A DNA stretch of 64,000 nucleotides from an uncultured Acidimicrobiaceae bacterium (GCA_963728845.1 CAVSLS010000057.1:20788-84787); one strand, 5' to 3'. Shown: positions 1-17,406, counted from the stretch's first letter. Notes: a model not told the origin generated them from the sequence alone. Numbers and translations: made by a program.

Positions 1-36
1 CATACGGTCACTGAAGTTGCGGCACGCACTGCCTGC

Positions 37-537
37 TTGGCCGCGGCGGTCCTCACCGTCCTGCTCGGGTCATCCGCCGCGCTCGCGTCGGCTGGTCACA
101 CCGGCTTCGGCTTCAATGCGCCGAACATCTCCGGTACCTCGGGTGCGGTCTTCCTGACCGGAGGGGGCGCCTTCGACTCCACATCAGGGTTCGTCCACTC
201 GGCTGGCGGCTTCAAGTGCACCTCCACAGTAAGCAGTGGCCCGCTCGCCGGATGCCAGGCAGGACAGGGCGTTCGTTGGGACACCGCCGCACTTCTGCGG
301 AGCACGCCGTTCAAGTGCACTGCCACCGATCCCTTGGGAGTCAAGACGGCGACCACCACCCAGGACACCGCCGTGTTGCGGGCCGACTTCTACCGAGCCG
401 GCGACGGGAACAACGAGTCGTTCACCGCCAACATGTTCGTCTCGACCGAGGACCTCGCTCCCGATGTCCCCGGCGTCCAGAATGCCTGGGTGCAAGGGGT
501 GGGCTGTGGGTCCGCAGTCGTGCACTTCAGCCACTGA
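37..537 (+). CDS. secreted protein of unknown function (the frame is open to the window start, so the true start may lie upstream)
   Basis: ORF 37..537. The N-terminus AAAVLTVLLGSSAALASA/GHTG resembles a Sec signal peptide with an AxA cleavage site. Several Cys in the mature part. Followed by a strong hairpin at 560..601. Confidence 0.55.
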   Translation: MAAAVLTVLLGSSAALASAGHTGFGFNAPNISGTSGAVFLTGGGAFDSTSGFVHSAGGFKCTSTVSSGPLAGCQAGQGVRWDTAALLRSTPFKCTATDPLGVKTATTTQDTAVLRADFYRAGDGNNESFTANMFVSTEDLAPDVPGVQNAWVQGVGCGSAVVHFSH

Positions 538-559
538 GGATCCCCGCATCATGGTGCTC

Positions 560-601
560 GCAGGTAGCTCCTGCCATCGCTGTCATGGCAGGAGCTACTG
601 C
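560..601 (+). terminator. long stem-loop after the secreted-protein gene
   Basis: gcag(g)tagctcctgccat (560..577) pairs with atggcaggagctactgc (585..601): about 17 bp with one bulge and a 7-nt loop. No U-tract. Confidence 0.5.
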
Positions 602-680
602 GCGTGACCACACCGCGCACGGGTTGATTCACTGCCCGCTCCCGATGTCCCATGACATCATTCACGAGGGGGCCCATTCA

Positions 681-723
681 GCGCGCTCGGAGGGATTCGA
701 ACCCCCAACCTTCTGATCCGTAG
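681..723 (-). repeat. orphan copy of the 3' half of tRNA-Arg (anticodon loop to discriminator); att-like direct repeat
   Basis: gcgcgctcggagggattcgaacccccaaccttctgatccgtag at 681..723 is identical to 6465..6507 (43/43, same orientation). Identity stops at 680/6464 and 724/6508. Confidence 0.9.
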
Positions 724-996
724 AGCGGTTCCGATCGTCCAGCCCGTGCCACTGAATCCATTTGACGAGTTGAGATCAGGTGCGGTGTCCATGCTGTGTT
801 ACTCATCATCAGTCGGTCCGCCGATTCGAGGAGCAACGTAGTAGCAAGATCCCACAACCGGATGGCTGCGACCGATACGACTGCTGATCCCGGGCACCGG
901 CATCACTGGAAGGCAATTGCTGTGGTCGGTTGGCCGGAGCGGAGCGCACACGCTGTTGCCCTTCCAGACCAGGGGAAAGACGACACGTTCGCTCGA

Positions 997-2412
997 TCAG
1001 TGGTCCGCCAGCGCTGCAGTGCCGATCGCATCCCCAAGCTCATCGAGAGCAGCGTGGAGTGCGTCGACGATCAGCCAGGGGTCGGGAACGCTGACCGGAG
1101 AGCCGAGCAGGGAGACACCCAGCGTTTGCTCGTAGCTCCAAGCAGTGATGTTGAGGCCGATCCCTTCGAGAATGGGACCCACCGAGTAGAGAGCTTCGAG
1201 CTCAATGGGACCAAAAAAGATCCGCTCCCGCGGTCCCGCGACGTTAGACAGCACCACGTTGAGGGGTGGGTGGACCCGGTCCGCTATATGGGACCGAGTC
1301 CAGAGCCGCACGGCCGAATGGTAGATCTGGGGCGGTACAAAATCGGCGCGCTGCTCAAAGAGCTCGTGGCCGAGCACGCTGCGAACTTCCTTGGAGGCTG
1401 CCGTCATGCTCCGGATATGCCCGAGGCGCTGCACTGGGTCGGCGATGTCGGTCCCGATGCTCACATAGAGGTTGTCGACTCGGTTGCCCGACATGCGGGC
1501 CACATTCGGGTCGGTCGAGACCGGGACGCTGGCGACGAGGGGGCGTGCGGGTAGTTCACCGCGGTCCAACAGGTAGCGACGCAACGCCCCCGCGCAGACG
1601 CACAAATAGACATCATTGAGAGTTGTGCCAGCGGTGCGCCGGATGGACTTGAGATCCTCGAGTGGGAGCCTGGTCATTGCAAACGTGCGATCGGAGGTAA
1701 GAGATACGTTGAACGACGTCTTTGGTATGTGGTGAAGAGGAAGAGGCGGCTTGACCGCGAAGCTGCGACGCATCGCTTCCGACGCTCGGCCCTGTCGCGC
1801 GGATTGCACCACAAACCGTGGCAGGCCTTTCCACCGGAGGACATGGTCGTGTGCCGCCATCCTCAGCAGCTCGCGACGCGTTGGGAGCGGCTCTGGACAC
1901 CACGTATCCACACTGGTCTCGCTTGACGGCTCGACGCCGGCGCCTTGCACCACGTTCTGGAGCAGAGCCACCACAGCGGACCCGTCGGCAACCGCATGGT
2001 GGATCTTCGCCACGACCGCGATGCGGCCGCCGTCAAACCCCTCCACGACCAACAACTCCCACAGGGGCCGATCGCGCGCCAGTGGGATGCCCGCGAAATC
2101 AGCCACCACGGCGGCGAGCTCGCGATCGCCCGCCTGGTCGGCGAGCACCCGGAGGCTGATGTGACGCTTCAGGTCGAACTGGGGATCCTCCACCCACACG
2201 GGATGACCGAGTCCCCACGGGACCGGCACGACCCGACGGCGGAACGGCGGGAGGCGGCAAAGTTGGTCCGCGAGGACGCCGGTCAGGGAGTCGAAGGAGA
2301 ATCCACCCTTCAGGGCAGAAACGTCGGCCACCACGACCTTCACCGTGTGCATGTGGGCCGTCGGTGTCTCGGAATAGAGGAATTTTGCGTCCAGCCCGGT
2401 CATCGTCTCCAT
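997..2412 (-). CDS. wax ester synthase/diacylglycerol acyltransferase (WS/DGAT)
   Basis: 471 aa. HHxxxDG active-site motif (KIHHAVADGSA). Typical N-terminus DAKFLYSETPTAHMH. Starts 3 nt after the stop of the upstream hydrolase gene. Confidence 0.9.
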   Translation of the reverse strand: METMTGLDAKFLYSETPTAHMHTVKVVVADVSALKGGFSFDSLTGVLADQLCRLPPFRRRVVPVPWGLGHPVWVEDPQFDLKRHISLRVLADQAGDRELAAVVADFAGIPLARDRPLWELLVVEGFDGGRIAVVAKIHHAVADGSAVVALLQNVVQGAGVEPSSETSVDTWCPEPLPTRRELLRMAAHDHVLRWKGLPRFVVQSARQGRASEAMRRSFAVKPPLPLHHIPKTSFNVSLTSDRTFAMTRLPLEDLKSIRRTAGTTLNDVYLCVCAGALRRYLLDRGELPARPLVASVPVSTDPNVARMSGNRVDNLYVSIGTDIADPVQRLGHIRSMTAASKEVRSVLGHELFEQRADFVPPQIYHSAVRLWTRSHIADRVHPPLNVVLSNVAGPRERIFFGPIELEALYSVGPILEGIGLNITAWSYEQTLGVSLLGSPVSVPDPWLIVDALHAALDELGDAIGTAALADH

Positions 2413-2415
2413 GCG

Positions 2416-3756
2416 TCAGCCTCGGAACTCGGGGGAACGGCTGGTCGAGACGTGACGCAGCGCGCTAATGAGAAAGTCCGTCACCTGTTTCGACCACAGG
2501 TAGCCCACGTGGCCCCCCGAATACCACGAGATGCGGGGCTGCTCCCAGTGCTCCCAGAGACGTTGGGCCTGATCCGGAAGGGCGAGCCGGTCGCCGTAGC
2601 CGGCGAAGATGAACCGGCCGTGCCTGGGCACCTTGGCCTCGAGGGAGAGGGGCGACACCACACGGTAGACGCTCTCCGCGGGGCCACCCATGATTTTATG
2701 CTCGATCGATCGGGCGCGGATGTCGTGGGGACTGTGTCGGTGGAACAGACCTGGGAAGTCCGAAACCGGGATGCCCGCCACGACGCCGTCGATGCCCTGT
2801 TCCAGACCGGCGAGGAGGGACACTGCGTACGCGCCCAGTGAGACGCCATAGAGGCTGATGGAGGTGGCTCCCTGCTGACGGATGCGAGTGATGAGGCGTC
2901 GGATGTCCCACACGGCCTGCGTCAGGCCGTGCACGGCGTTCATCAGCTCGAAGGAGAGGAACGGCTCCCCGCTCACCAGAGTGACGCGGCGGGGCCCATG
3001 AAGGGGCAACGCCGGGAGGGCCACGTTCATCCCCAGCTCGTGGTGGAGCCGGTTCATCTGGAGCCCCTGGAAGTCCATGAAGGGGAACCCCATGCAGAAG
3101 CCGTGCACGGCGATCACCCAGCGGCGGGGTCCGTCCGGGTGGCGAACGACGACGGCCGAGGCCGTCCGGTTCGGCTCGAACGCCATCCAGCGGTCGGCTC
3201 CCGGCTCGCCGGGATGGGGGGTGAACCCGCTGTCCCAGTCCCACCGGTCGTAATGCATCCCCATGGCCCATCCCCGGCTCGTCGTCACCCGGGATTCGAC
3301 GAGCGGCGGCGGGGTGCGGTGATAGGAACTGGGCTCCGCGATCCAACCCTCTCCTGCGTACAAGGATTCGGCCTCGGCGAGCTCGTTCGACACCCTCGCG
3401 TAGTCCCTGGCCAGCGGGAACCTGCGGGGCGTCATGGCCATGGCCAGCAGCGCCTCGTCCATCGCCACCTGTGCCGCGAGGCCGAGCGAGAGGTGCGGGG
3501 CCGGCACCGAGTCGCTCACTTCCCCGCTCAGCAACGCCGAACCCATGTAGTGCAGCGTGCGGGGCAGGGCGCGGGTCGCCCGGACGAGCGCGCGCCGATT
3601 CAAGAAGCCAGAAGCCGCTCGGAAGAGTCCGGTGACTCGATCGATCCCCGGCACCGAGATTCCCGGCCTGACGCTCGCGGACACGCTCTCGGTAGGGTCG
3701 ACTCCGCTCGCGGGGTTGACCCGTTCGCCGGTGGGATCGTGCGCAACCTCCCCCAT
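2416..3756 (-). CDS. alpha/beta-fold hydrolase
   Basis: GxSxG nucleophile elbow (YGVSLGAY) and an HGF oxyanion region (VIAVHGFCMG). I chose the ATG at 3756 because AAGGAGG lies 4 nt upstream. The longer track ORF (to 4290) overlaps the divergent acyl-CoA synthetase gene. Confidence 0.8.
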   Translation of the reverse strand: MGEVAHDPTGERVNPASGVDPTESVSASVRPGISVPGIDRVTGLFRAASGFLNRRALVRATRALPRTLHYMGSALLSGEVSDSVPAPHLSLGLAAQVAMDEALLAMAMTPRRFPLARDYARVSNELAEAESLYAGEGWIAEPSSYHRTPPPLVESRVTTSRGWAMGMHYDRWDWDSGFTPHPGEPGADRWMAFEPNRTASAVVVRHPDGPRRWVIAVHGFCMGFPFMDFQGLQMNRLHHELGMNVALPALPLHGPRRVTLVSGEPFLSFELMNAVHGLTQAVWDIRRLITRIRQQGATSISLYGVSLGAYAVSLLAGLEQGIDGVVAGIPVSDFPGLFHRHSPHDIRARSIEHKIMGGPAESVYRVVSPLSLEAKVPRHGRFIFAGYGDRLALPDQAQRLWEHWEQPRISWYSGGHVGYLWSKQVTDFLISALRHVSTSRSPEFRG

Positions 3757-3882
3757 CCGGCCTCCTTGCGTACCGTGGCGCCTCGACCCCGAAGAGGGGC
3801 CACGGCCACCGACTGTGATACTACGTCTGGCATCCTCATCGATGGCAGAGGCTGATGTCCCAAATCTGGACCGGGGAGTGCC

Positions 3883-5499
3883 GTGGAGTTCAACCTTGCC
3901 GATCTTTTCGAGAGCGTGGTCGACCGGGTCGGGGATCAGACGGCGATGGTGTCGGGCTCCCGACGGCTCAGCTACACCGAGCTGGACCGGCGGGCCAACC
4001 GGCTCGCCCACCACCTGGAGAGCGTCGGCGTCGGGTCCCGTGACACGGTAGGACTGCAGCTGGTCAACGGCACCGAGTACATCGAGAGCATGCTGGCGTG
4101 CTTCAAGATCCGTGCCGTGCCGGTCAACGTCAACTACCGCTATCTCGGAAGCGAGTTGGAGTATCTGTACGGTGACGCCGCGCTCGTGGGCCTCATCGCC
4201 CATGGCCGTTTCGCTCCAGCCGTGGAAGGGGCTCTGCACGCCATGTCCGAGTACCGGGCCGTGCTGCAGGTGTGTGAGCCGAGCGGTCATCCCCCGACCG
4301 TGGGTGAGGACTACGAGCGTGCTCTCGCATCAGCGCCCGACTCCCGCGGGTTCAGCCCGCGCCGCAGCGACGACCTTTACTGCGTCTACACGGGCGGCAC
4401 GACCGGCATGCCCAAGGGCGTGCTCTGGCGACACGACGACATCTTCTTCGCGGCCATGGGTGGCGGTGACCCATTTTCCTCGGGCAACCACATTGCCACC
4501 CCTGGCGAGCTTGTCACGCGGCTCCTGCATCCGGGCATCACTGCGCTTGCCATACCTCCGTTCATGCACGCGGCCGGACACTGGTTGGCGTTCTCGACGT
4601 TGTTCGGTGGCGGGACGGTCGTGACGACCGATGGAGGCGGCTTCGACGCAGCCGAGGTCTGGCGTCTGGTGGAGGCAGAGCGGGTCAACGCGATCGCCGT
4701 GGTGGGCGACGCCATGGTCCGGCCGCTGCTCGACGTGCTGGCCGCGCAACCCGATCGCTACGACCTCTCGTCGTTGATGGCCGTGGGGTCCGGAGGAGCA
4801 GTGCTTTCACCGTCCACAAAGGCACAGCTGGCCGAACTCCTCCCCGGTCGGATCGTCGCCGACAGATTCGGCTCGTCCGAGACTGGACAGGTCGGTGGTG
4901 AAATGCCTCCCGACGACCCGTTCGGGCCGCCACGACTGCGAGTTGACGACCGTACTGACGTGCTCGACGACGATCTGCGGCCTATCGCACCCGGATCCGG
5001 GGTGGTCGGACGTCTCGCCAGGGGCGGCCATGTCCCGATCGGCTACCTGGGCGATCCGCCCAAGTCCGCGACCACCTTCGTGGAGGCACGGGGCCAACGC
5101 TGGGCGCTGCCCGGTGACCTGGCGACGGTGGACACCGACGGGAGCATCGTTGTCCTCGGGCGAGGTTCACTCTGCATCAACACGGGCGGGGAGAAGGTCT
5201 TCCCCGACGAGGTGGAGGCCGCTCTGAAGGACGACCCCGCCGTCCGCGACGCCGTCGTCGTCGGCGCGCCCGACCCTCGCTTCGGTGAGCGTGTCGTCGC
5301 TCTGGTGCTGGCCCGGGCCGGGCACGAGATCAATCCGGAGGCTGTCCGCCAGCACGTCCATACCAGGGTGAGCGGCTTCAAGGTGCCCCGAGACATACTC
5401 GTCGTCGATCACATCGTTCGTTCGCCCAGCGGAAAGGCGGACTATCCCTGGGCCCAAGCGGTCGCCGAAGCGGCGCTACGAGACCGGGACGAGAAGTGA
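3883..5499 (+). CDS. acyl-CoA synthetase / AMP-dependent ligase (FadD-like)
   Basis: 538 aa. AMP-binding motif YTGGTTGMPKGV and a C-terminal SPSGKADY motif. GTG start preceded by GGGGAG. Confidence 0.9.
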   Translation: MEFNLADLFESVVDRVGDQTAMVSGSRRLSYTELDRRANRLAHHLESVGVGSRDTVGLQLVNGTEYIESMLACFKIRAVPVNVNYRYLGSELEYLYGDAALVGLIAHGRFAPAVEGALHAMSEYRAVLQVCEPSGHPPTVGEDYERALASAPDSRGFSPRRSDDLYCVYTGGTTGMPKGVLWRHDDIFFAAMGGGDPFSSGNHIATPGELVTRLLHPGITALAIPPFMHAAGHWLAFSTLFGGGTVVTTDGGGFDAAEVWRLVEAERVNAIAVVGDAMVRPLLDVLAAQPDRYDLSSLMAVGSGGAVLSPSTKAQLAELLPGRIVADRFGSSETGQVGGEMPPDDPFGPPRLRVDDRTDVLDDDLRPIAPGSGVVGRLARGGHVPIGYLGDPPKSATTFVEARGQRWALPGDLATVDTDGSIVVLGRGSLCINTGGEKVFPDEVEAALKDDPAVRDAVVVGAPDPRFGERVVALVLARAGHEINPEAVRQHVHTRVSGFKVPRDILVVDHIVRSPSGKADYPWAQAVAEAALRDRDEK

Positions 5500-5508
5500 A
5501 GAGACCGC

Positions 5509-6339
5509 TTAACCGAGAATCGGAAAGCGGCGTTCAGCTGCCAATCGATCGAGTGTCGTCTGCATCGTCCCGGTGAGCTCCTGGTAGCAGTCTCGAACGA
5601 TCATTTCGTCGTCAGCCGCGTCCGGCGCGTACCGCGACGACCAGTCCATCGGAGGACCCAGTTCCACGGTGATCTTCGCAGGAAGTGGGAACGTGGGAAT
5701 GCCCCCTGGCACGACACCAAAGGGGGGGCCCAGCACCAGGGGCATCACTTTGATACGGAACATGCGATCGAGCCTGAGCCACTTTGCGACGCGCTCACCT
5801 CGGGCGAGGACGACGAGTGCTTCGTGGGCGCCGACGGAGACAGCGGGGATCACGGGGACCCCTGTTCGCAATGCGAGACGAACCACGCCGAGGCGACCGC
5901 CGAACTCGATGCGGTTTCGCTCCCACCACGGCCGGAAGACCTCTGAGTCACCACCCGGGTAGTCGATCAGGATCCCTCCGCTGCGAAGAACCGCCTCCGC
6001 CGCGGCCGGCCCGGCTTCGACGGCACCGGCACGCTTCATGACAGGGCCCACCCCCGGAAGCCCCAAGAAGAACGAGTGGAAGAGTGCGTAGACAGGCTCG
6101 TCTTCGCCTCGCTCACGCCACCACGCCGTCAGCAGGACCGGTAGATCTGGCGGTGTCTGGCCACCAGAATGGTTCCCGACCACAAGGAAGGGTCCACGTC
6201 GGGGCAAATGCTCAAACCCCCGCACCTCTGGCCGGAAGTAGGACGCGTAGCGCTCCAGGACGGGTCGAACGGTACGGAGGAACGAGGGATCACGGGCAGA
6301 CCCGACGGGGGCCGGCGTGATGCTGTGGTCGTCCGCCAT
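5509..6339 (-). CDS. lysophospholipid/glycerolipid acyltransferase family protein (PlsC-like)
   Basis: VVGNHSGG and FPGG-like blocks (IDYPGGDSEVFRP) typical of the PlsC superfamily. ATG at 6339 chosen because the longer ORF runs into the tRNA gene. Confidence 0.7.
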   Translation of the reverse strand: MADDHSITPAPVGSARDPSFLRTVRPVLERYASYFRPEVRGFEHLPRRGPFLVVGNHSGGQTPPDLPVLLTAWWRERGEDEPVYALFHSFFLGLPGVGPVMKRAGAVEAGPAAAEAVLRSGGILIDYPGGDSEVFRPWWERNRIEFGGRLGVVRLALRTGVPVIPAVSVGAHEALVVLARGERVAKWLRLDRMFRIKVMPLVLGPPFGVVPGGIPTFPLPAKITVELGPPMDWSSRYAPDAADDEMIVRDCYQELTGTMQTTLDRLAAERRFPILG

Positions 6340-6465
6340 TCCCCAACTATGCACGTGATGCGGGTCGATGTCGGCTCGGAGCAGGCAGCTGCCTCTGTCG
6401 CGTGCGCCGGGATGGCCCTGCACGCCTGCGTTCAGCCGTCCACCCGATGGGGTCAAGGCACTCGG

Positions 6466-6539
6466 CGCGCTCGGAGGGATTCGAACCCCCAACCTTCTGA
6501 TCCGTAGTCAGATGCTCTAGTCCGTTGAGCTACGAGCGC
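6466..6539 (-). tRNA. tRNA-Arg (anticodon ACG)
   Basis: Hand-folded cloverleaf on the minus strand: acceptor GCGCTCG/CGAGCGC, D arm GCTC..GAGC, anticodon stem TCTGA/TCAGA with loop CTACGGA, T arm GGGGG-TTCGAAT-CCCTC. 74 nt, no encoded CCA. Confidence 0.9.
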
Positions 6540-6601
6540 TGGGTGAGACAGGACAGTGTACCGGAGCCCTGCCCCGGTTCCCGAGGCGTCGCCGCACCTG
6601 G

Positions 6602-7804
6602 TCAGACGGAGATCGGCAGCCTCGAGTAGCCGCGAACGGTGCTGGTGTAGAGGGGCACCGTGCCCTCCCGGTCGACCGACCATTCCGGGAACCGTTTGAA
6701 GGTCTCCTCGAGGGCGACCCGACCCTCCATGCGGGCGAGCGCCGCCCCCAGGCAGAAGTGGATGCCGTAGCCGAAGGACAGGTGGTGGTCGATGGTGCGG
6801 TGGATGTCGAAGCGATCCGCGTCGGGAAAGGCCCGTTCGTCGCGCCCGGCCGACCCGGTGATCATCACGACCTTGGAGTTGGCCGGGATCCTCTGCCCGT
6901 GAACCTCGACGTCCGCCGTGCACCACCGGCTCTGCACCGGCGAGGGGGCCTCGTAGCGGAGGAGCTCCTCCACGGCGTTCGGTATCAGGCTGGCGTCGGT
7001 GGCGAGCTCAGCCCGCTGCCCCGGGTTGTCGTCCAGGGTCAGGGCCGCCCAACCGAGCAGCCGGGCCACCGTCTCGGTCCCGGCGCTTCCGATCAGGAGG
7101 GCGAAGTTCGCCGCCTGCTCCATCGTGAGCCGACGCGGCTGGCCGTCCTCGTCGACGATCTCGCCGTTGAGGAGGTCCGTGAACATGTCGTCTCGTGGTG
7201 AAGTCTGCCGATCGGCAACCTGGGCCGTCACATACTCCATGAGCTTGCCCATGGCCTCGGCCGACACGTCGTTGTACATGCCCAGCTCGGGGTCGAGGTG
7301 GAAGCTCTCGTCGATCCAGCCCCGGACCATGTCCCGGTCCTCGGGCGGCACACCGAGCAACGCGGCGATGACATAGGCCGGGACGCGGGCGCCGAAGTCC
7401 TGCACGTAGTCGAACGAGCTCTTTCCGACCTGCGCGTCGAGCAGGCTCACGCAGAGGCCGCGGATATCCTGCTCGAGCAGTGCCATCCGCCGCGGTGTGA
7501 AGGCCTTGGAGACCAACCGGCGGTAGCGAGTGTGGTCGGGAGGGTCCATGAAGATCATGATCTCCATGGAGGTCGGCTCGGGACCGATCATCTCCATCAC
7601 CGTGCCGTGCGAGGAGCAGAAGGTCTGCGGATCGCGACTGAAGGCGTCCACGTCTGCGAAGCGGCTGACGGCGTAGAAGTCGAGATGGTCGTTGTAATAG
7701 AGCGGCGCCTCGTCGCGCAGGCGCCGCCAGATCGGGTGCGGGTCGACCTTGTACTTCTCATCGAGGGGATCCCAGGCGAGTGGTTCGGTGTCGAGCGCTG
7801 TCAC
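6602..7804 (-). CDS. cytochrome P450
   Basis: 400 aa. Heme-binding loop FGYGIHFCLGAALAR, EELLRY (ExxR) motif, AGTETV I-helix motif. Confidence 0.9.
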   Translation of the reverse strand: MTALDTEPLAWDPLDEKYKVDPHPIWRRLRDEAPLYYNDHLDFYAVSRFADVDAFSRDPQTFCSSHGTVMEMIGPEPTSMEIMIFMDPPDHTRYRRLVSKAFTPRRMALLEQDIRGLCVSLLDAQVGKSSFDYVQDFGARVPAYVIAALLGVPPEDRDMVRGWIDESFHLDPELGMYNDVSAEAMGKLMEYVTAQVADRQTSPRDDMFTDLLNGEIVDEDGQPRRLTMEQAANFALLIGSAGTETVARLLGWAALTLDDNPGQRAELATDASLIPNAVEELLRYEAPSPVQSRWCTADVEVHGQRIPANSKVVMITGSAGRDERAFPDADRFDIHRTIDHHLSFGYGIHFCLGAALARMEGRVALEETFKRFPEWSVDREGTVPLYTSTVRGYSRLPISV

Positions 7805-7816: not shown

Positions 7817-8626
7817 TCAGACGGCGATATGGGACTCGTCCCAGAGCTTGATCCCGCCGAGGATGCCCGCCGTGTTGTCCACGACGGTGATCCGCTCGAG
7901 TACTTCGCCGAGGTCGCGCCGGTTGACGCGCTGCGCGTTGCCGCCGCCGATGTAGAGGTGGTCGAAGAAGGTCAGCGCATTGAAGTAGGCGATCATCTTG
8001 CGCACCCGCCCGTTCCACTTGTCGTCGCCGGCCTTCTTGCGCGCCGCCTCCCCGAGTTGCTCGTTGAAGTTCTCGCCCTTGCGGAATTCCAGGTGGGAGA
8101 ACTCCAGGTGAGGCAGCAGCCGGCCGCCCATGAAGAAGGCCGTGCCCACACCCGTGCCGAGCGTGACCACCGCCTCGAAGCCCTGGCCCTGCACCACCGC
8201 GAGGCCCTGGACGTCGGCGTCGTTGGCGACACGGCAGGGCTTGCCGATCGAGTGCGCCAGGGCGTGGGCCAGGTCGAAGCCCGACCAGGCCTTCACCAGC
8301 TCGGGAAGGACGGTGCTGCCGGGGCCCTTCTCGGTCACGAAGTGCGGAGCGCTGAGAACCTCACCGCTGCGGACCATGCCCGGAAAGCCGGCGGAGGTTC
8401 GGTCGGCTGTGGGGAGCTTGTCCGCCAAGCCGCTGAGCTGCTCGACCAAACGGTCGGGCGGCATGGGGTAGGTGGTGGCGATCTTGACCCGGTCGGCCAC
8501 GAACGCGCCGTCCTTGTCGAGCACGTCGGCCTTGAGCCCGGTGCCGCCGATGTCGATGCTCAGCGTGAAGGGACGGCGGTGCGCAGACGTGGTCGAGCTT
8601 TCGGTCACCGGAGGAACTGTAGCCAC
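7817..8626 (-). CDS. ppgK: ROK-family polyphosphate glucokinase-like sugar kinase
   Basis: 269 aa. N-terminal ATP-binding DIGGTGLK, followed by LGTGVGTA...EFSHLEF blocks collinear with PpgK. GTG start. Confidence 0.7.
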   Translation of the reverse strand: MATVPPVTESSTTSAHRRPFTLSIDIGGTGLKADVLDKDGAFVADRVKIATTYPMPPDRLVEQLSGLADKLPTADRTSAGFPGMVRSGEVLSAPHFVTEKGPGSTVLPELVKAWSGFDLAHALAHSIGKPCRVANDADVQGLAVVQGQGFEAVVTLGTGVGTAFFMGGRLLPHLEFSHLEFRKGENFNEQLGEAARKKAGDDKWNGRVRKMIAYFNALTFFDHLYIGGGNAQRVNRRDLGEVLERITVVDNTAGILGGIKLWDESHIAV

Positions 8627-8660
8627 GCGGTCAGATTCGGTCTCCGTGGAACCGGTCCCG

Positions 8661-9326
8661 TCATCCGAGAAGGACGTTGTGGATGATGGCGCGGAGCTGG
8701 TCCCCCAATTCTTCGTTGGTCTCCTCGGCGAAGGCCTCGCCGGAGAGGACGAGTCCCGAGAAGACCACGCCCACCGAGGCCGCCATCTTCACCCGGTCCG
8801 GGAAGGGGACCCGGGTGTCGGCCAGCACCCGTCGGAACTGGTTCTGGAAGTCCTCGTGCTCGGCGTCGTGGTCCTCCCGGTGCAGCTTCTCGAGGGCGGC
8901 CTGGTTCCGCTCGTGCATGAGGAAGATCTTGCGCTGGGCCAGCATCTGGTCGACGATGCCGTCGAGCAGCTCGCCCCACAGCTCGAGGGTGACCGGCCCC
9001 TCGGTCATGCGCAGCAGCGCCTCGCGGCCGAATTCGTGGATGCGCATGTGCAGCGCCAACAGGATGTCGTCCTTCGACTCGAAGTGGTAGTAGAGGGCTG
9101 CCTTGGTGACGCCCAGCTGCTCGGCGATCTGGCGCAGGCTGGTGCCGTCGAAGCCCTGCTCTATGAAGAGGTCGAGGGCCACATCGAGGATGCGCTCGCG
9201 GGTGTTGGGGTGGGCGGGGTCGGCAGCGGAGGCCACGCCCGGGCCCGGCTCGACGACGCTGCCGAGAAGCGGCTCTTCGTCTGGTTCTGCGTGATCTGGG
9301 TCTGCGTGCGCCGCGGTCTGGGACAT
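8661..9326 (-). CDS. TetR-family transcriptional regulator
   Basis: HTH region RERILDVALDLFIEQGFDGTSLRQIAEQLGVTKAALYYHF. Divergent from the ABC exporter gene at 9419. Confidence 0.85.
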   Translation of the reverse strand: MSQTAAHADPDHAEPDEEPLLGSVVEPGPGVASAADPAHPNTRERILDVALDLFIEQGFDGTSLRQIAEQLGVTKAALYYHFESKDDILLALHMRIHEFGREALLRMTEGPVTLELWGELLDGIVDQMLAQRKIFLMHERNQAALEKLHREDHDAEHEDFQNQFRRVLADTRVPFPDRVKMAASVGVVFSGLVLSGEAFAEETNEELGDQLRAIIHNVLLG

Positions 9327-9338
9327 TCGCCTCAACTC

Positions 9339-9410
9339 TACTTGACGGCAGGTAAGTAAGGTCCTACCATGCCTCATGCCTTAGCCGGAGAGTCTACTGA
9401 CCGACAGGTA
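9339..9410. promoter_or_regulatory. two copies of a 16-nt partly palindromic motif in the TetR/ABC divergent spacer (candidate operators)
   Basis: TACTTGACGGCAGGTA (9339..9354) and TACTGACCGACAGGTA (9395..9410) share 12/16 positions and have TAC..GTA ends. The second abuts the ABC gene's ribosome-binding site. Confidence 0.3.
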
Positions 9411-9418
9411 GGGAAGCT

Positions 9419-10477
9419 ATGGGACCTGAGCTGATGATCGAGGCCGAGGGGCTGACGAAGAGCTACGGCCAGACCCAGGCCCTGGCCGGGGTCGGCTTCT
9501 CGGTCCCCGCCGGCACGATCCTCGGGCTGCTCGGCCCGAACGGGGCAGGGAAGACGACGGCCGTGCGGATCCTGACCACGCTGGCGCTGCCCGATTCGGG
9601 ACGCGGCGCCGTGGCCGGCATCGACGTGGCCAAGCACCCCGGTGAGGTTCGGCGCCACATCGGCGTCGCCGCCCAGGACGCCACGTTGGATCCGCTCTTG
9701 ACGGGGCGCCAGAACCTGGTGCTGGTGGGCGAGCTCTCGGACATGGGCCGAGCCGCGTCGAAGTCCCGAGCGACCGAGCTCCTCGCCCAGTTCGAGCTGA
9801 CCGACGCCGCCGACCGTATCCTCAAGGGCTACTCGGGCGGCATGCGCCGGCGGCTGGACCTGGCCGCGTCGCTGATGACGCGACCCCCCGTGCTCTTCCT
9901 GGACGAGCCGACGACGGGATTGGACCCGACGAGCCGGCAGCGCGTGTGGGACGCCATCCGTGAGCTGCTCGGCGAAGGGGTCACGGTACTGCTGACGACG
10001 CAGTACCTGGAGGAGGCGGACGCACTGGCCCACCGCATCGTCGTCGTGGACCACGGCCTCGTCATCGCCAACGGCACACCCCAGGAGCTCAAGGAGGCGA
10101 GCCGGAGTGCCCGCGTCGAGGTCACGCTCCCGGCTCCGCACCCGGAGGCGGTTGGCGCGATGGCGCCGCTGGTCGCCGGTCCGGTCCACGTCAGTGAAGA
10201 TGGCCGGCGCCTGAGTGCCGGGGTGGACGCCGCACCGGGCCTGGCCACCTCGGTCGTACGTGCGCTGGACCAGGCGGGCGTACTGGTGGACAACATCGAG
10301 GTGCGCCAGCCGTCGCTCGACGACGTGTTCTTCTCGCTCACCGGCGGGCACATCGAAGGGGACGCCGAGGACGGGGACGGTGCCGCGAACGATGGGGTCG
10401 GGGATCGCACGATTGCGGCGGCGGATCCCGGCAGTGACGGCGGCGGCCGTCACGAGCTGGAAGGAGTGCGCGCATGA
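9419..10477 (+). CDS. ABC transporter ATP-binding protein (DrrA-like, ABC-2 exporter)
   Basis: Walker A GPNGAGKTT, signature YSGGMRRRL, Walker B LFLDEPTTGLD. Overlaps the permease start by 4 nt (ATGA). Confidence 0.9.
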   Translation: MGPELMIEAEGLTKSYGQTQALAGVGFSVPAGTILGLLGPNGAGKTTAVRILTTLALPDSGRGAVAGIDVAKHPGEVRRHIGVAAQDATLDPLLTGRQNLVLVGELSDMGRAASKSRATELLAQFELTDAADRILKGYSGGMRRRLDLAASLMTRPPVLFLDEPTTGLDPTSRQRVWDAIRELLGEGVTVLLTTQYLEEADALAHRIVVVDHGLVIANGTPQELKEASRSARVEVTLPAPHPEAVGAMAPLVAGPVHVSEDGRRLSAGVDAAPGLATSVVRALDQAGVLVDNIEVRQPSLDDVFFSLTGGHIEGDAEDGDGAANDGVGDRTIAAADPGSDGGGRHELEGVRA

Positions 10478-11397: not shown

Positions 11398-12810
11398 ATG
11401 ACGGCAGAACCCTGGCTCGGAGACGCCTGCTCCCTCGTCGACGCCTTCCGTGAGGGGAGGATCTCCCCCACCGAGGCCCTCGAGGGGTCGCTGGCGGCGA
11501 TCGCCGGCTCGAAGCTCAACGCCGTGTGCTTCGTCGACGAAGAGCGGGCGCGGGAGTCGGCGGCGGGCGCCGACGTCAACTTGCCCTTCGGCGGGGTGCC
11601 CGTCGGCATGAAGGAGCTCGACCCGGTCAAGGGCTGGCCACAGACGGAAGCCTCGCTGGTGTTCAAGGACCGCAGCGCGGACTACGACTCCACCATGACG
11701 GCCCGGCTCCGGGCGGCCGGTGCCGTGTTGGTCGGCCAGACAACGGCCTCGGAGTTCGGCGGCATCAACTGCACCTACACCCGGCTGCACGGCGCGACCT
11801 CGAACCCCTACGACCTCGAGCGCACACCCGGCGGCTCTTCGGGGGGCTCGGCCGCATCGGTCGCCGGCGGGCTCCTGCCGATCTGCACGGGCGGCGACGG
11901 CGGCGGCTCCATCCGGATCCCGGCCGGCTTCACGGGCCTCTTCGGCCTCAAGTCGACGTTCGGGCGGATCCCGAAGGGACCGAAGACCGAGATCGAGCCG
12001 CTCACCGCCGTCCTCGGGTGTCTGTCGCGCTCGGTGCGTGACACCGCCCGCTGGTTCGACGCCTGCAACGGCAGTGACGAGTATGACCCCTTCTCGCTGC
12101 CCCGGGTCGAGGGCTGGGAGGCCGGCCTCGGCCAGCAGGAGGTGCGGGGAAAGCGGGTGGCGGTGTCGGTCGACCTGGGTGCGGCCGTTGTGGCGTCTGC
12201 CGTCGGGGACAAGGTCGAGGAGGCGGCGGACCTGCTGATCAAGGACGCCGGGCTGACCCGGGTGGACGTGCCCATCGGGCTCCCGCGGGGCGGCCTGGAG
12301 TGGGCCCTCGCCGGCACGGCCAGCCTGCTCGTCGGCCTGGGCGACCTGTACCCCGGCTGCGAGTCCCAGCTCACGCCCGAGATCATGCTGGCGGCCAACA
12401 TCGCGACCAATCACTACGACGTCGACACCGCCATGAACATCGAGGCCTTCCGCCGGCAGATCATCGTGCAGACGGCACAGGTCTTCGAGCAGGTCGATTT
12501 CATCGTGTGTGCAACGAACCCCGACGTGGCCTTCGGCGCACAGGGGCCGATGCCGACGACGATCGACGGGATGGACCTCATCGCCGAACACGGGTTCGAG
12601 GCTGCGGTGGGGAACAACGGCGCCCTGACCATCCCCGCCAACACGACCGGGCACCCGGCCGTCGCGATCCCCATCGGGCTCGTCGACGACCTGCCGGTCT
12701 CTCTGCAGATCATCGGCCGCCGGCACGCCGAGCAGCTGTTGCTCGACTTGGCCCGCATCGTCGAGATCGAGCGACCGTGGCCCTTGGTGGCGCCCGGCGC
12801 CCCCACCTGA
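11398..12810 (+). CDS. amidase (amidase-signature family)
   Basis: 470 aa. GGSSGGSAASVAGG signature and a Ser-cisSer-Lys context. Confidence 0.9.
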   Translation: MTAEPWLGDACSLVDAFREGRISPTEALEGSLAAIAGSKLNAVCFVDEERARESAAGADVNLPFGGVPVGMKELDPVKGWPQTEASLVFKDRSADYDSTMTARLRAAGAVLVGQTTASEFGGINCTYTRLHGATSNPYDLERTPGGSSGGSAASVAGGLLPICTGGDGGGSIRIPAGFTGLFGLKSTFGRIPKGPKTEIEPLTAVLGCLSRSVRDTARWFDACNGSDEYDPFSLPRVEGWEAGLGQQEVRGKRVAVSVDLGAAVVASAVGDKVEEAADLLIKDAGLTRVDVPIGLPRGGLEWALAGTASLLVGLGDLYPGCESQLTPEIMLAANIATNHYDVDTAMNIEAFRRQIIVQTAQVFEQVDFIVCATNPDVAFGAQGPMPTTIDGMDLIAEHGFEAAVGNNGALTIPANTTGHPAVAIPIGLVDDLPVSLQIIGRRHAEQLLLDLARIVEIERPWPLVAPGAPT

Positions 12811-13037
12811 GCCAGACGTTCCGGGCCTCTTCCGCCCTTCGGCCTCCGCGTCACGCGGCCCGGGTCGCAACCAGGTCGCAATTCGACTGCAACCGCTGCC
12901 CAACGAAACGGCGCGGTGGTGACGACGCGCCGACAACGGCATCCCTCTGGCCTTGAGTTTTGGGGTTCCGTTGGGACGTTCTGTGACTTTTGATACCTGC
13001 GCTTCAACGACGGTTTGTCATACCCTGTCGGAGGCAC

Positions 13038-14546
13038 ATGGCGGAAGAGATGCTCTTCACAGTGGCCGGGTCCGTCGCGATGCCGGCGCAGATGATCTCG
13101 CTCGAAGAGGCGGGCCTCGAGGAACGCGCGGATCTCCAGGAATGGGTGCTCTCGAACCCCGCCATCCTCGGTCCCGCCGTCAAGGTGATCACCTTCGAAT
13201 TCGACGGACTGCCGGGCCCGGCCGGAGGAGGCCGGGACCGCATCACCGTGCTCGGCCTGGGGGCCGACGGGCGGTTGGTCATCGGAGAGCTGAAGAGCGG
13301 GCGGGCCCCGGACACCGAGGTCCATGCGATCAAGTACGCCGCCATGGCCAGCCGCACGCTCCCGGAGACGCTGGCCGACCACTACGCCCGCTTCCAGGCG
13401 CGGCTTCAGATGCCCGTCACGCCCGAGGAGGCACTGGCCGACCTCCAGGCGCACGCCCCCGACCTCTCGCAGGAGTCGCTCCGGCGTCCGCGCATCGTCC
13501 TGCTCGCCCGGGAATTCTCCCCCGTCGTCACCGCCAGCGTCGTCTGGCTCAGCGAGATGGGCCTCGACATCTCCCTCGTCCAGATCAGTGCCTTCCGCTC
13601 GTACGTCTACGGTCAGTTGGGCAGTGGCAACGTGCCCATGATCTCGGTGAGCCAGCTCTATCCGCTGCGCGAGATCGAGGAGTTCACCATCAGCCCCGAG
13701 CGCCAGCTGGCCAAGGAGATGGCCGAATCCCGCCGACGCGTGCAGGACGCCAGCACCGTTCGACGGCTCGTCACGGCCGAGACGGTCGCGGACGGGACGA
13801 TCTTCACCCTCAGCCCCCGCAGCGACCTCAGCTTCGACATGCGCAGTCAGCTCGAAGAGTGGCTGCACGCCGACCCGGCGCGCCGGACCGCACACTGGCA
13901 GAACAACCTCAACGCGCCGTTGGTGTGGGACGTCGACAAGACGGTGTACACGCCGGCGAGCCTCGTGCGCCACATCGTCGAGCAGGCCACCGGGGTCACG
14001 CGCGACTGGTTCGGCACCCAGTGGTGGCGCGACCCTGCCGGATGGACGCTCGTCGAGCTCGCCGGGCCGCTCATCGGCGGCAAGGGTGCCCTCTATCGCG
14101 ACTACTGGTCGCGCTGGCTCGAGAAGGTGCGTGTCGAGCACGGGCACTGGACCCAGATGTCCACGTTGCCGGCGCAAAACTTCATCACGCTTCCCTCCCC
14201 TATCAAGGGCACCCACTACGGACTGGCCTTCGCGGCGGGCGGGCGGCTGCGCTCGGACTTCTACGTCGACCTCGGCTCCCCCGAAGCCAGCGCCGCACAG
14301 TTCGAGGTCCTTCAATCACAGCAGCAATTGATCGAATCGGTCTACGGCGGCCCACTGTCGTGGGAGCGCCTCCCCGACCGTGGCGCCTACCGCATCGCCG
14401 ACTACAGCGAGGGCGAGGTCACCACGGTCGAGGACTACGCGTTCTACATCGACTGGATGATCGACGCCCAGGAGCGCCTGCGCCAGGCCGTCAATGCGGT
14501 CCTGCGCAGCGGCGAGCCGCCGGACGAACCGTTCGACCGCCGCTGA
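13038..14546 (+). CDS. NucS/DUF91-like PD-(D/E)xK nuclease-fold N-terminal domain fused to a DUF4268-like C-terminal domain
   Basis: ATG at 13038 with GGAGG 4 nt upstream. N-terminus ...DRITVLGLGADGRLVIGELK... fits a D..(E)xK nuclease core. The C-terminal about 150 aa (YWSRWLEKV...GLAFAAGGRLRSDFYVD...YGGPLSWERL) resembles DUF4268. Confidence 0.65.
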   Translation: MAEEMLFTVAGSVAMPAQMISLEEAGLEERADLQEWVLSNPAILGPAVKVITFEFDGLPGPAGGGRDRITVLGLGADGRLVIGELKSGRAPDTEVHAIKYAAMASRTLPETLADHYARFQARLQMPVTPEEALADLQAHAPDLSQESLRRPRIVLLAREFSPVVTASVVWLSEMGLDISLVQISAFRSYVYGQLGSGNVPMISVSQLYPLREIEEFTISPERQLAKEMAESRRRVQDASTVRRLVTAETVADGTIFTLSPRSDLSFDMRSQLEEWLHADPARRTAHWQNNLNAPLVWDVDKTVYTPASLVRHIVEQATGVTRDWFGTQWWRDPAGWTLVELAGPLIGGKGALYRDYWSRWLEKVRVEHGHWTQMSTLPAQNFITLPSPIKGTHYGLAFAAGGRLRSDFYVDLGSPEASAAQFEVLQSQQQLIESVYGGPLSWERLPDRGAYRIADYSEGEVTTVEDYAFYIDWMIDAQERLRQAVNAVLRSGEPPDEPFDRR

Positions 14547-14547
14547 G

Positions 14548-15399
14548 TCACGAGCTCTTCAGCTTCCAGACCGCCAGCGGCGCGAAGACCACGACCAGCC
14601 CGGCCGTCCACAACAACGATGGGACCAGGTAGTACGAGAGCGAGTGCCCGAGCAGCTGCTGGGCCGCGGGACCGCCGGTGAGCAGGCGCACCGTGTTGAT
14701 CATCTGTGTCATGGGTTGGTTGGTGGCGAAGGCCTGCATCCAGCCCGGCATCGTCGCCACCGGCACGTAGGCCGAGGAGACGAAGCTCAGCGGGAAGACG
14801 AGAAACGACAGGCTCTGCGCCGCCTGTGGGCTCCCGGCCGCCAGGCCCATGAAGATGAACATCCACACGAAGGCGAAGCCGTAGACGATGGTCAGGCCGA
14901 ACGCGGCCAGCGCCTCGCCGACGGAGCCACCGGTGCGGAAGCCGACGGCGAAACCGACCGCCGTCATGACCACGACGCCCCAGGCAACGAGCGCCGAGTC
15001 GGCACCGACCCGGCCGGTGATGATGGACAGGAGCCGGATCGGCAGGGAGCGCAGACGGTCGAACAGCCCGCCCTCCTGGTCGTCGGCCACGCCGCTCGCC
15101 GCGCTCATGCCCTGGAAGAGCACGCCGGTGACGACGAAGCCCGGCACCAAGAAGTCCACGTAGCTGAGGCTCCCGGTGTGGGCGATCGCGCCGCCGAAGA
15201 CGTAGCGGAAGATGAGGAGGAAGAGCACCCCCTGGGCGGTGCCCGCCACGATCAGGGCCGGGCTGCGGACGAATTTCTTGAGCGTCCGGCCGGCCACCTG
15301 GCTCGAGGCGACGAGATACGACGCTCCCTGGTTCGTCACCACCCCCGTGCGTCCGCTGCCCGCCTGGCGCGGCGGATCGAGAGTCAGGTCCATGGTCAT
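14548..15399 (-). CDS. ABC-2 type transporter permease (DrrB-like)
   Basis: ATG at 15399 (MTMDLTL...) overlaps the stop of the upstream ATPase gene (ATGA). Multi-pass hydrophobic protein, paralogous to 10474..11331. Confidence 0.85.
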   Translation of the reverse strand: MTMDLTLDPPRQAGSGRTGVVTNQGASYLVASSQVAGRTLKKFVRSPALIVAGTAQGVLFLLIFRYVFGGAIAHTGSLSYVDFLVPGFVVTGVLFQGMSAASGVADDQEGGLFDRLRSLPIRLLSIITGRVGADSALVAWGVVVMTAVGFAVGFRTGGSVGEALAAFGLTIVYGFAFVWMFIFMGLAAGSPQAAQSLSFLVFPLSFVSSAYVPVATMPGWMQAFATNQPMTQMINTVRLLTGGPAAQQLLGHSLSYYLVPSLLWTAGLVVVFAPLAVWKLKSS

Positions 15400-16364
15400 G
15401 CTGCGTCCTCCTTCGGAGTCGTGGTGGTCGTGGCGTGCCCGGTCAGGGCGAGGAACACCTCGTCGAGGGTGGGACGGCGGAGGGCGATGTCCTCCACGGG
15501 GACGGCGGCGTCGTCGAGGGCCCGGACGACGATGGGTAGCAGTCGCGAGCCGCTGGGTGCGGCGATGGAGCACCGCCGCGTCGCCGGGTCGGTGGCCGGC
15601 TCGGCCATGCCGAGCGACCCGAGCACCTCGGCCGCCCGCTGCATGGTGAGCAGGTCGGCGGTGTGCAGCTCGACCATGTCGGCACCAACCCGCGACTTCA
15701 GCTCGTCGGGCGTGCCCTGGGCGATCACGCGTCCTCCGTCGATGATGACGATGGACGACGCCAGGTGGTCCGCCTCGTCGAGGTACTGCGTCGTCAGCAC
15801 GACATCGGTCCCGGCCCAGCTCATCTCTCGGATGCCGTCCCACACCTCGTTGCGGCTCCCCGGATCGAGCCCGGTGGTCGGCTCGTCGAGGAGCAGGACG
15901 CGCGGGGAGCCGACGAGGCTCGCCCCGAGGTCGAGCCGCCGGCGCATCCCGCCGGAATAGGTCCGGACCTGGCGGTCGGCGGCCTCCACGAGATCCATCT
16001 GCTCGAGGATCCGCGCCGCGCTCTGCTTGGCCGCGCCGGCAGGCTGCCCGTAGAGGCGGGCCACCATGACCAGGTTCTCCCGGCCGGTCATCATCTCTTC
16101 GACCGCGGCCGACTGGCCGGCCAGGCCGATCATGCGCCGCACCGCCATCGCGTCGCGGACGGCGTCATGGCCGCCCACGAGCAATGACCCGCGGTCGGGC
16201 TGGAGCAGCGTCGCCACCATGCGGATGAACGTGGTCTTGCCCGCGCCGTTCGGCCCGAGGATGGCCACGGGTTTGCCCGCCGGCAGCGTGAGAGAGAAGT
16301 CGGACAGAGCCTGGACCTTCCCGAACTTCTTGCTGAGGCCGTCGGCCTCGATGAGCGCGTCCAT
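15396..16364 (-). CDS. ABC transporter ATP-binding protein (DrrA-like)
   Basis: Walker A GPNGAGKTT, signature YSGGMRRRL, Walker B LLLDEPTTGLD. Confidence 0.9.
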   Translation of the reverse strand: MDALIEADGLSKKFGKVQALSDFSLTLPAGKPVAILGPNGAGKTTFIRMVATLLQPDRGSLLVGGHDAVRDAMAVRRMIGLAGQSAAVEEMMTGRENLVMVARLYGQPAGAAKQSAARILEQMDLVEAADRQVRTYSGGMRRRLDLGASLVGSPRVLLLDEPTTGLDPGSRNEVWDGIREMSWAGTDVVLTTQYLDEADHLASSIVIIDGGRVIAQGTPDELKSRVGADMVELHTADLLTMQRAAEVLGSLGMAEPATDPATRRCSIAAPSGSRLLPIVVRALDDAAVPVEDIALRRPTLDEVFLALTGHATTTTTPKEDAA

Positions 16365-16473
16365 TGGCGCGCCTCCTTTCGTCGGAGAGCCCGCTCGACG
16401 GAGGTCGCCTACGCTCTTGGGTGCTGCCTCGGGCGAAGGCCCCTCGTGGGTCGGGCTCGTGGTTGTGTGGGCT

Positions 16474-16503
16474 CGGGGCCGCGTGGTGCAACACGCGGCC
16501 CCG
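16474..16503 (-). terminator. GC-rich stem-loop between the PadR gene and the ABC ATPase gene (terminator or attenuator)
   Basis: cggggccgcg (16474..16483) pairs with cgcggccccg (16494..16503): 10-bp stem, 10-nt loop. Confidence 0.3.
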
Positions 16504-16505
16504 GG

Positions 16506-17150
16506 TCATTCAAGGTTCGTGTCGAAGTTGAACTGCACCTCCTCGGGGTTGAAGCCTTCGGTGTGGAACATGCGCCACATGTCGAGCCCCTCGAGGGTGC
16601 CCGCGGTCATGTCGTCGACGAGGCCGTTGACGAACTTCAGCTCGGCGGCGAGCTGCTGCTCCTCGTACTCGGTCTCCAGCTCGAAGATCCGGGGCAACCC
16701 GGCCTCGTGCGCTGCCTTCATGGCGCTGCGGATGGCGACCACCTTCATCTTCAGCGCGTCGGCCCGCGCCCGAAGTGCCGCGAGGGCGTCGTCGGGATCG
16801 AGGGAAGGGATGAAGGAGAGACCCGCCATGAACGCCGGGTACTCCTTCGTGGGGACGCCGATGAGCTCGGTCATCCAGTCGTCCATCTCGCGCGACCCGT
16901 CGTCGGTGATCTCGTACACGGTGCGCTGGGGCCGCTTGCCCTCCCGCACGGTGCCGGTCGCCTTGATGAAACCCTTCTTCTCGAGCACCTCGACCACGGC
17001 GTAAAGGGAGCCGTAATTGAGGCGGACGCTCTCCTGTTTGGCCCGCTGGCGCAGGGTCTGGGCCACCTCGTAGGGGTGCATGGGCTTCTCGTAGAGGCAG
17101 ACCAGCACCGCCAGGGCGAGGGGGTTGGAGCGGGACCATCGTGGTGGCAT
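16506..17150 (-). CDS. PadR-family transcriptional regulator
   Basis: Winged-helix region LALAVLVCLYEKPMHPYEVAQTL...NYGSLYAVVEVLEKKGFI. First gene of a PadR plus ABC-2 exporter unit. Confidence 0.9.
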   Translation of the reverse strand: MPPRWSRSNPLALAVLVCLYEKPMHPYEVAQTLRQRAKQESVRLNYGSLYAVVEVLEKKGFIKATGTVREGKRPQRTVYEITDDGSREMDDWMTELIGVPTKEYPAFMAGLSFIPSLDPDDALAALRARADALKMKVVAIRSAMKAAHEAGLPRIFELETEYEEQQLAAELKFVNGLVDDMTAGTLEGLDMWRMFHTEGFNPEEVQFNFDTNLE

Positions 17151-17168
17151 CGACTCATAGTATTCGAT

Positions 17169-17196
17169 TCAGAGTAATCTGTAAAGAGTGCTCTGA
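17169..17196. promoter_or_regulatory. inverted repeat in the AT-rich region upstream of the PadR gene (candidate operator/promoter)
   Basis: TCAGAG-N16-CTCTGA within an unusually AT-rich stretch directly upstream of the PadR start. Confidence 0.25.
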
Positions 17197-17383: not shown

Positions 17384-17406
17384 GGGGTCTTCGAGCCCGG
17401 GAGGAC

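Follow-up and report, generated by a model that had tools for sequence, protein, structure and literature searches.

Genomic islands linked to tRNA genes, and the actinomycete integrative and conjugative elements (AICEs) of the pSAM2/SLP1 type, integrate into tRNA 3' ends by means of a tyrosine integrase. In their classical form they encode int next to the attachment (att) site, usually together with xis, rep and tra. Cis-mobilisable elements (CIMEs) are defined by the retention of attL and attR and the lack of integration, excision and transfer genes (PMC5704250). CIMEs and integrative and conjugative or integrative and mobilisable elements (ICEs and IMEs) accrete in tandem at one att site in the ICESt1/ICESt3-related islands of Streptococcus thermophilus (PMC5704250), and the same source cites the Streptomyces toxicogenic region as an accretion case. 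Clusters in which a wax ester synthase/diacylglycerol acyltransferase (WS/DGAT) is accompanied by AGPAT/PlsC-like acyltransferases and an acyl-CoA synthetase are known from Acidimicrobiales, Rhodococcus and marine metagenomes; the available part of the source reports no tRNA att association for them (PMC10351704). The locus described here brings these two subjects together. It lies in a 64,000-nt stretch of DNA from an uncultured Acidimicrobiaceae bacterium (GCA_963728845.1, CAVSLS010000057.1:20788-84787; 'the window'), where four neutral-lipid genes are enclosed between two copies of the 3' part of tRNA-Arg(ACG).

We consider it probable that positions 724-6464 represent the decayed remains of an integrative island that entered the 3' end of this tRNA gene, and that they are the equivalent of a CIME. 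A tyrosine integrase of the family found in the comparison loci L010 (CAVUYE010000002.1), L172 and L174 would have recombined the attP site of an element with the tRNA next to a chromosomal gene, F. Integration would have restored an intact tRNA, whose 3' part is the attL core (6465-6507), and would have placed a 43-bp copy together with an element arm at the far end (attR, 681-850). Later losses would have removed the integrase and the arm next to it, along with any excisionase (Xis) or replication genes. The remainder would be the four-gene lipid module, now vertically inherited and incapable of self-movement; its excision would be expected only with a cognate integrase and excisionase from another element, such as one integrated in tandem at this tRNA. 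The identity of the integrase responsible for the junctions, the sequence in which these events took place and any mobility today are inferred.

The repeat and the tRNA-Arg(ACG) attachment site

The segments at 681-723 and 6465-6507 are identical at 43 of 43 positions in the same orientation, and the match can be extended to 47 of 49 (675-723 against 6459-6507). ARAGORN finds a single tRNA in the whole window, a tRNA-Arg(ACG) at 6464-6539 on the minus strand, which also matches Rfam RF00005 at 6466-6539 with 68 bits. With its first base at the start of the anticodon loop, the repeat takes in the remainder of the tRNA up to the 3' end, and on the tRNA strand its other copy is found 5.78 kb further in the 3' direction, which places the island 3' of the tRNA. 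Alignment confirms the duplication, its limits and its polarity as they had been described from the window alone (the sequence-only reading). The stop of identity, sharp in that description, is not entirely so on the outer side, where four of the next six bases still match. The 43-mer might have been a dispersed repeat, but at up to three mismatches it has only two copies in the 64-kb window, against 0 expected in shuffled sequence. A T-arm-like 11-mer (GGTTCGAGTCC) is present at 32799 (minus strand), outside called tRNAs; it may be a chance occurrence within a gene or another att relic.

Relatives of the locus were found by scanning one genome per species with the adjacent cytochrome P450 (6602-7804), which returned Acidimicrobiaceae metagenome-assembled genomes (MAGs) from soil and peat. 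The order ROK-P450-tRNA-Arg is kept in about 20 related genomes, with P450 proteins 70-94% identical and an identical 43-mer inside the tRNA. The DNA that follows the tRNA varies from genome to genome among these loci. The same four lipid genes beside tRNA-Arg in all relatives had been named as a sign against an inserted islet; they are absent within 10 kb downstream of the tRNA in every one of the loci (0 of about 20).

A tyrosine integrase (PF00589 and/or its N-terminal domains) is the first open reading frame after the tRNA in at least 11 loci. These integrases fall into three families that are less than 30% identical to each other, and each family has its short motif, present in 3-4 copies between the tRNA and the start of int (GACCCTA, TGGCAATC, GTGAGAAC or TGCTACT). 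The elements of L010, L172, L174, L017 and others integrate at the same core, and in L017 a 44-bp direct repeat, whose limits coincide with those of the window repeat and whose copies are 5.7 kb apart, encloses a complete small element. Because of the integrases that follow the tRNA and this complete element with the same repeat, tRNA-Arg(ACG) is a genuine and heavily used attB, with the 43-mer as its core. The interpretation of the two copies as attL and attR is supported both by this hotspot, in which the same 43-44-bp core bounds an integrase-bearing element, and by the conserved chromosomal genes on both outer flanks of the window's island.

The integrase-bearing elements at this tRNA are varied in content. 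The L017 element (11843-17563) encodes a tyrosine integrase, a PIN protein, an HTH_17 protein and a 789-aa primase-helicase in which an AEP (TOTE-type) primase is fused to an SF2 helicase. In the L010 family the elements have cargo for defence and anti-defence: L172 (12308-20184) encodes T5orf172, SSB and a restriction-modification enzyme of the MmeI type, and L174 (11399-17623) encodes RadC, BglII, MT-A70, SMODS, SSB and ArdC.

Junctions of the island and the putative attR arm

Outside the far repeat copy lies the 3' part of gene F, which encodes a secreted protein. Its orthologues are 90-92% identical and always follow a TetR gene (minus) and then an ECF sigma gene (plus) in L168-L171 and L177, which shows that F is chromosomal; the side downstream of F is variable among these loci. 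The F stop codon is followed by a perfect 14-bp inverted repeat, presumably the terminator hairpin of F, which is conserved in L168, L169 and L177. A simple promoter and terminator scan of 400-6700 gave nothing informative and missed this hairpin because it has no T run. Since F on one side and P450-ROK on the other are both chromosomal, the island is an insertion relative to its flanks.

The left junction recurs in other lineages. L177, an independent assembly, matches window positions 1-1017 at 92% identity through F, the hairpin, the 43-mer (41/43), the arm and the 3' end of the WS/DGAT gene. The insertion is common to the window and at least one lineage about 8% diverged, so the island is fixed in at least two lineages and has been inherited, not freshly moved. 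By our estimate the chance that a 43-mer stays unchanged after about 8% divergence is about 0.2, roughly one in five, and the perfect repeat is therefore no proof of recent activity. In L171, F is followed by a decayed 43-mer, the same arm up to window position 846 and then unrelated genes. L170 has F and, at a distance of 5.7 kb, a perfect 43-mer, which has the arm sites of one element family on one side and a truncated integrase of another family on the opposite side; this 43-mer is a tandem-accretion junction. Within the L170 region (15285-18536) the truncated integrase is of L018 type, and the side of the 43-mer with the arm sites (GATTGCCAA) also has an HTH_17 Xis and an insertion of the IS3 family.

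The window's arm begins at the inner edge of the attR core with a 24-nt stretch, Z (724-747), that is identical at 23 of 24 positions in L081 (3150-3173) and in L171 (about 10700). The adjoining segment, Y1 (748-850), has 71% identity with L171; its similarity to L081 is visible but clearly lower than that of the lipid module. Homology with both arms stops just past a pair of sites at 828-846, which read TTGCTCCTC and TGCTACT on the reverse complement, 11 nt apart. A TGCTACT-like pair with the same 11-nt spacing is present in all three arms, and TGCTACT has only two occurrences in the whole window. In L010, L172 and L174 the stretch from the tRNA to the start of int contains TGCTACT(G) 3-4 times; their integrases are 78-79% identical to each other and occupy three different chromosomal contexts, all at tRNA-Arg(ACG). 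Because these sites are shared, we read 724-850 as the putative integrase-distal attP arm of an L010-family element, retained as attR. Candidate arm-type integrase sites would then flank the attR core, with none predicted on the attL side. Z is near-invariant in three lineages, in contrast to its neighbours on either side: the 43-mer is decayed in L171, and over the following 100 nt the window and L171 agree at only about 70% of positions. This pattern suggests constraint on the Z stretch. A scan of viral_contigs for the Z-43-mer junction gave 0 matches.

The sequence-only reading had noted that no recombinase is encoded between the repeats, and its proposed search for integrase remnants in the spacers was carried out. 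A Pfam scan of the four island genes finds no integrase, and tblastn of the whole 64-kb window with eight integrases from the same att site in relatives gives a best E-value of 0.05. The same eight queries return only noise in 538-1000 and 6340-6470, as does a search of 538-1000 for Xis (HTH_17). The absence of an integrase holds across the window.

Several observations weigh against a decayed integrative island. No integrase, Xis or replication remnant is detectable inside it, and the argument for its origin as a full element is consequently drawn from the arm and from relatives. Arm-type sites, which intact elements have on the tRNA-proximal (attL) side, are absent from that side of the window's island. 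The upstream region that belongs to the module itself begins within about 30 nt of the tRNA end, so that the proposed deletion would have ended very near the tRNA. The intact elements of L010, L172 and L174 have no attR within 10 kb (they are longer than 10 kb) and so offer no direct comparison for the arm. An empty site, with F directly followed by tRNA-Arg-P450, had been suggested as a check; none was found among L001-L080 and L168-L171/L177 when the F protein and window 1-1000 were compared with the P450 loci and the contexts of F orthologues were inspected. Adjacency of F and tRNA-Arg is only implied, by the F-side relics L171, L177 and L170. Finally, the module is a conserved gene cluster of the lineage and may for that reason have entered an older island without site-specific integration.

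Table 1. Features of the island and its flanks (positions in the window).
Feature	Position	Strand	Basis or remark
Gene F, 3' part; secreted protein of about 190 aa; chromosomal flank outside attR	1..537	+	orthologues
Perfect 14-bp inverted repeat after F stop, GTAGCTCCTGCCAT ... ATGGCAGGAGCTAC	564..598	.	read from sequence
attR core, copy of last 43 nt of tRNA-Arg(ACG)	681..723	-	43/43 vs 6465-6507
Putative attR arm, P-type, probably element-derived (Z 724-747, Y1 748-850)	724..850	-	homology to L081 and L171 arms
Non-coding spacer between arm and WS/DGAT stop codon	851..996	.	similarity to L177 only; no recognisable gene remnant
WS/DGAT (wax ester synthase/diacylglycerol acyltransferase)	997..2412	-	PF03007 + PF06974; TIGR02946; HHAVADG
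Alpha/beta-fold hydrolase, probable lipase/esterase, GVSLG nucleophile elbow (GxSxG)	2416..3756	-	homologue names
Acyl-CoA synthetase, FadD-like	3883..5499	+	PF00501 + PF13193; NF005863
PlsC-like acyltransferase	5509..6342	-	PF01553, E 1.7e-9
Region upstream of PlsC-like gene, abutting tRNA	6343..6464	-	without TGCTACT arm sites
Intact tRNA-Arg(ACG); 3' 43 nt (6465-6507) = attL core	6464..6539	-	ARAGORN; Rfam RF00005
Cytochrome P450	6602..7804	-	Pfam; conserved chromosomal flank 5' of tRNA
ROK-family protein	7817..8626	-	Pfam; conserved chromosomal flank 5' of tRNA

The lipid module in the window and in other contexts

Profile matches and, for the hydrolase, its GxSxG elbow and the names of homologues identify the four genes between the repeats as they were first described (Table 1). 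The WS/DGAT scores 398 bits against TIGR02946 (cut-off 310), and its catalytic HHxxxDG motif is present as HHAVADG in the translation; the acyl-CoA synthetase scores 661 bits against NF005863 (cut-off 543). The hydrolase has no Pfam match and only a weak RcgR-family match; its homologues number more than 1000 at 62-95% identity, and some are named alpha/beta or dienelactone hydrolase by their sources. The PlsC-like protein reads NHSGGQTPPD, off the canonical NHxxxxD spacing, despite its PF01553 match. Judging from family membership, the four genes would form a neutral-lipid (wax-ester/triacylglycerol, TAG) module. Base composition sets the island apart from its flanks, a comparison that had been proposed with the first description: no other 5.7-kb stretch of the window deviates as strongly in its tetranucleotides (3.3 standard deviations), and the island has a GC content of 66% against 70% for the window. 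The segment at 724-996, singled out earlier as AT-richer, has 59% GC. The module itself has 64-66% GC in every host context.

L081 is 94% identical to the window over 981-6507 and has no tRNA. Z and the arm are followed in L081 by the 43-mer and then by the same PlsC upstream region, a junction that would be expected in a circle released from the window by excision, but also where a second element has accreted beside the island or in a tandem array. A truncated HTH_17/Xis relic, homologous to the Xis of the L010 and L170 elements, lies just past the WS/DGAT gene, in the place that corresponds to the window's non-coding spacer (851-996). The segment comprising arm, 43-mer, lipid module, Xis relic, CDO_I/rhodanese, SPW and a 233-aa protein is flanked by a diverged direct duplication of about 2.7 kb (1-2730 and 12675-15703, 86-94% identical), which encodes a patatin, a 315-aa protein and DUF5995. 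Either a Campbell-type circle insertion or a tandem of two related elements could have produced this layout. The possibility that L081 is a circular or concatemeric assembly was rejected, as the copies run into different sequence after DUF5995. A native position of the module beside tRNA-Arg, with L081 simply attR and chromosome, was also ruled out for the window, because F and P450-ROK are both chromosomal and the module with its cores lies between them.

L081 bears most directly on the idea, which we regard as unlikely, that the window holds a functioning cargo-only unit that excises as a circle between the 43-mers through an integrase and Xis encoded elsewhere or in tandem, and re-integrates at tRNA-Arg. 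The exact circle junction of Z, 43-mer and PlsC upstream region beside a 94% identical module, and the surrounding duplication, are what such a unit would leave; the window has two perfect cores, many members of the population have cognate integrases, and the module occupies at least eight contexts among relatives of at least 84% nt identity. However, no integrase is encoded in the 64 kb, and lambda-type integrases need arm-type sites, which the attL side lacks. The Y arm of L081 is far less like the window arm than the module is (94%), and accretion of a different, related element fits it better. The junction is stable and common to a lineage about 8% diverged (L177), and a perfect 43-mer, expected by chance about once in five cases, is no proof of recent use. 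Of the two histories put forward in the sequence-only reading, the loss of mobility genes is the better fit, given the L177 junction and an attL without arm sites; for mobilisation in trans the comparisons supply no direct evidence of movement.

The module is found well beyond this tRNA. With 70-94% nt identity, the block of four genes is present in 79 metagenomic loci and several contigs, mostly without the Arg 43-mer, and is a widely conserved Acidimicrobiales gene cluster and no exotic import. Its neighbours differ in at least eight ways among the relatives of at least 84% nt identity, and none of those neighbours is present in the window. Where the module stands in other contexts, the limits of homology are the WS/DGAT stop (about 995) and about 6374-6434 and do not coincide with the att cores, and L171 has the same F-43-mer-arm junction with entirely different genes inside. 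These observations would suit an att scar and lipid genes of unrelated origin, in which the module replaced the interior of a decayed island by homologous or illegitimate recombination, or the order was the reverse, and was never cargo. We think this improbable: the module recurs between repeats of three different tRNAs, which is difficult to account for without some connection to integrating elements.

The second and third of these tRNAs are tRNA-Gly(GCC) and a tRNA-Met(CAT) type. In L094 the module is enclosed by a 46-nt direct repeat of the tRNA-Gly(GCC) 3' part, whose two copies match at 45 of 46 positions and are 8.3 kb apart (2050-2100 and 10375-10425); L084 has only the upstream tRNA-Gly copy, at about 203. 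In L092/L093 the module, together with a TPP (thiamine pyrophosphate) enzyme and an FAD (flavin adenine dinucleotide) oxidoreductase, lies between two tRNA-Met(CAT)-type fragments (1750-1790 and 11059-11100 in L092; 9443-9484 in L093), and L090 has two Met fragments, both upstream of the module (2718-2746 and 7263-7311). The arms beside the Met fragments carry repeated ATCCCAC. The module also adjoins the tRNA-derived 43-mer in L081 and orphan tRNA fragments in L090/L145, L088 and L109. No integrase is encoded in any of these intervals. The fragments were found by regular expression and BLAST; Rfam in E-value mode gave no partial tRNAs in L084, L085, L090 and L092. A lipid cassette moving as a tRNA islet had been called unusual. 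The conserved Acidimicrobiales cluster speaks against an unusual cassette, and its place between fragments of three different tRNAs in three lineages unexpectedly favours the idea of a lipid cassette carried by islands that target tRNAs.

Two further features were seen in these loci. In L084, a tandem partial duplicate (8415-10446), consisting of the hydrolase 3' end and WS/DGAT, directly follows the module and is 88% identical to window 3024-995. In L090, a weak Rfam match to the ASdes small RNA lies at 13951-14018 (minus strand), with 35.5 bits (below the gathering score of 40) and E 1.7e-4.

An artefact or chance, with the second 43-mer a misassembly join or a dispersed repeat, is highly improbable: the window probably comes from a MAG and its exact WS/DGAT protein has no record elsewhere, but each junction is reproduced in an independent assembly (F-43-mer-arm-WS/DGAT end in L177, 43-mer-PlsC upstream region in L081), and the window holds just the two copies against 0 expected.

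On the tRNA-proximal side of the island, 8 nt beyond the end of the tRNA, there is a 19-nt motif (TTGACCCCATCGGGTGGAC; 6438-6456, minus strand); in most relatives, conservation of the module block sets in at about 6434. In 2.5 Mb, the motif (TTGaCCCnnnnGGGTGGAC) has four occurrences and one variant, always 8-9 nt after a tRNA-derived core: in the window, at L081 3226, at L017 17573 (outside attR), at L109 5788 and, as the variant, at L088 about 1990. It follows the att cores of three different tRNAs and is lacking in those elements at tRNA-Arg that bear an integrase. The motif points into an island with the lipid module in four of the five cases. A weak likeness of 6430-6464 to the outer flank of the L017 attR, considered as a native trailer, was superseded by this discrete motif at several tRNA types. 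A broader and rather doubtful proposal is that the module belongs to a family of integrase-less islets at several tRNA 3' ends in Acidimicrobiales, which would share the 19-nt end motif and be moved from one tRNA hotspot to another by the integrases of resident elements, with a complete storage-lipid pathway as a parasitic passenger.

Comparison with known systems

The locus is a clean, well-bounded case of a housekeeping-type pathway (fatty acid activation and wax-ester/TAG storage) in the flexible genome of uncultured soil actinobacteria. If passenger mobility is real, carbon storage in Acidimicrobiales would be a horizontally traded trait, and the tRNA-Arg(ACG) site, which at least three integrase families use, would offer a natural setting in which to study accretion and cis or trans mobilisation outside Firmicutes and Streptomyces. 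If there has been only repeated island decay around a conserved cluster, it is an ordinary genomic scar.

Like a CIME, the window's island keeps attL and attR and is without integration, excision and transfer genes, and its site is also used by integrase-bearing elements of the same specificity. Tandem arrays occur at this site in the relatives L170 and probably L081, with no accretion in the window itself. The evidence for an origin by decay of an ICE or IME consists of the homologous arm with its arm-type sites and the Xis relic in L081; unlike in a CIME, no relic of a conjugation module is seen in the island. The cis-mobilisation of CIMEs was shown experimentally, whereas this island is known from sequence alone. 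The host also differs, being an uncultured Acidimicrobiaceae bacterium, as does the cargo, a neutral-lipid pathway in place of restriction, resistance or toxin genes.

With classical tRNA-linked islands and AICEs the island shares a repeat that extends from the anticodon loop to the tRNA 3' end, a regenerated tRNA, candidate arm-type sites near the core and a hotspot used by several integrase families; unlike them, it has no int, xis, rep or tra. The combination of WS/DGAT, PF01553 acyltransferase and PF00501 acyl-CoA synthetase resembles the clusters described in PMC10351704, from which the window differs in its Pfam-orphan alpha/beta hydrolase and in having no HAD-fused AGPAT. Integrase-less relics of tRNA islands are a known kind of locus; what is unusual here is lipid cargo between repeats of three different tRNAs.

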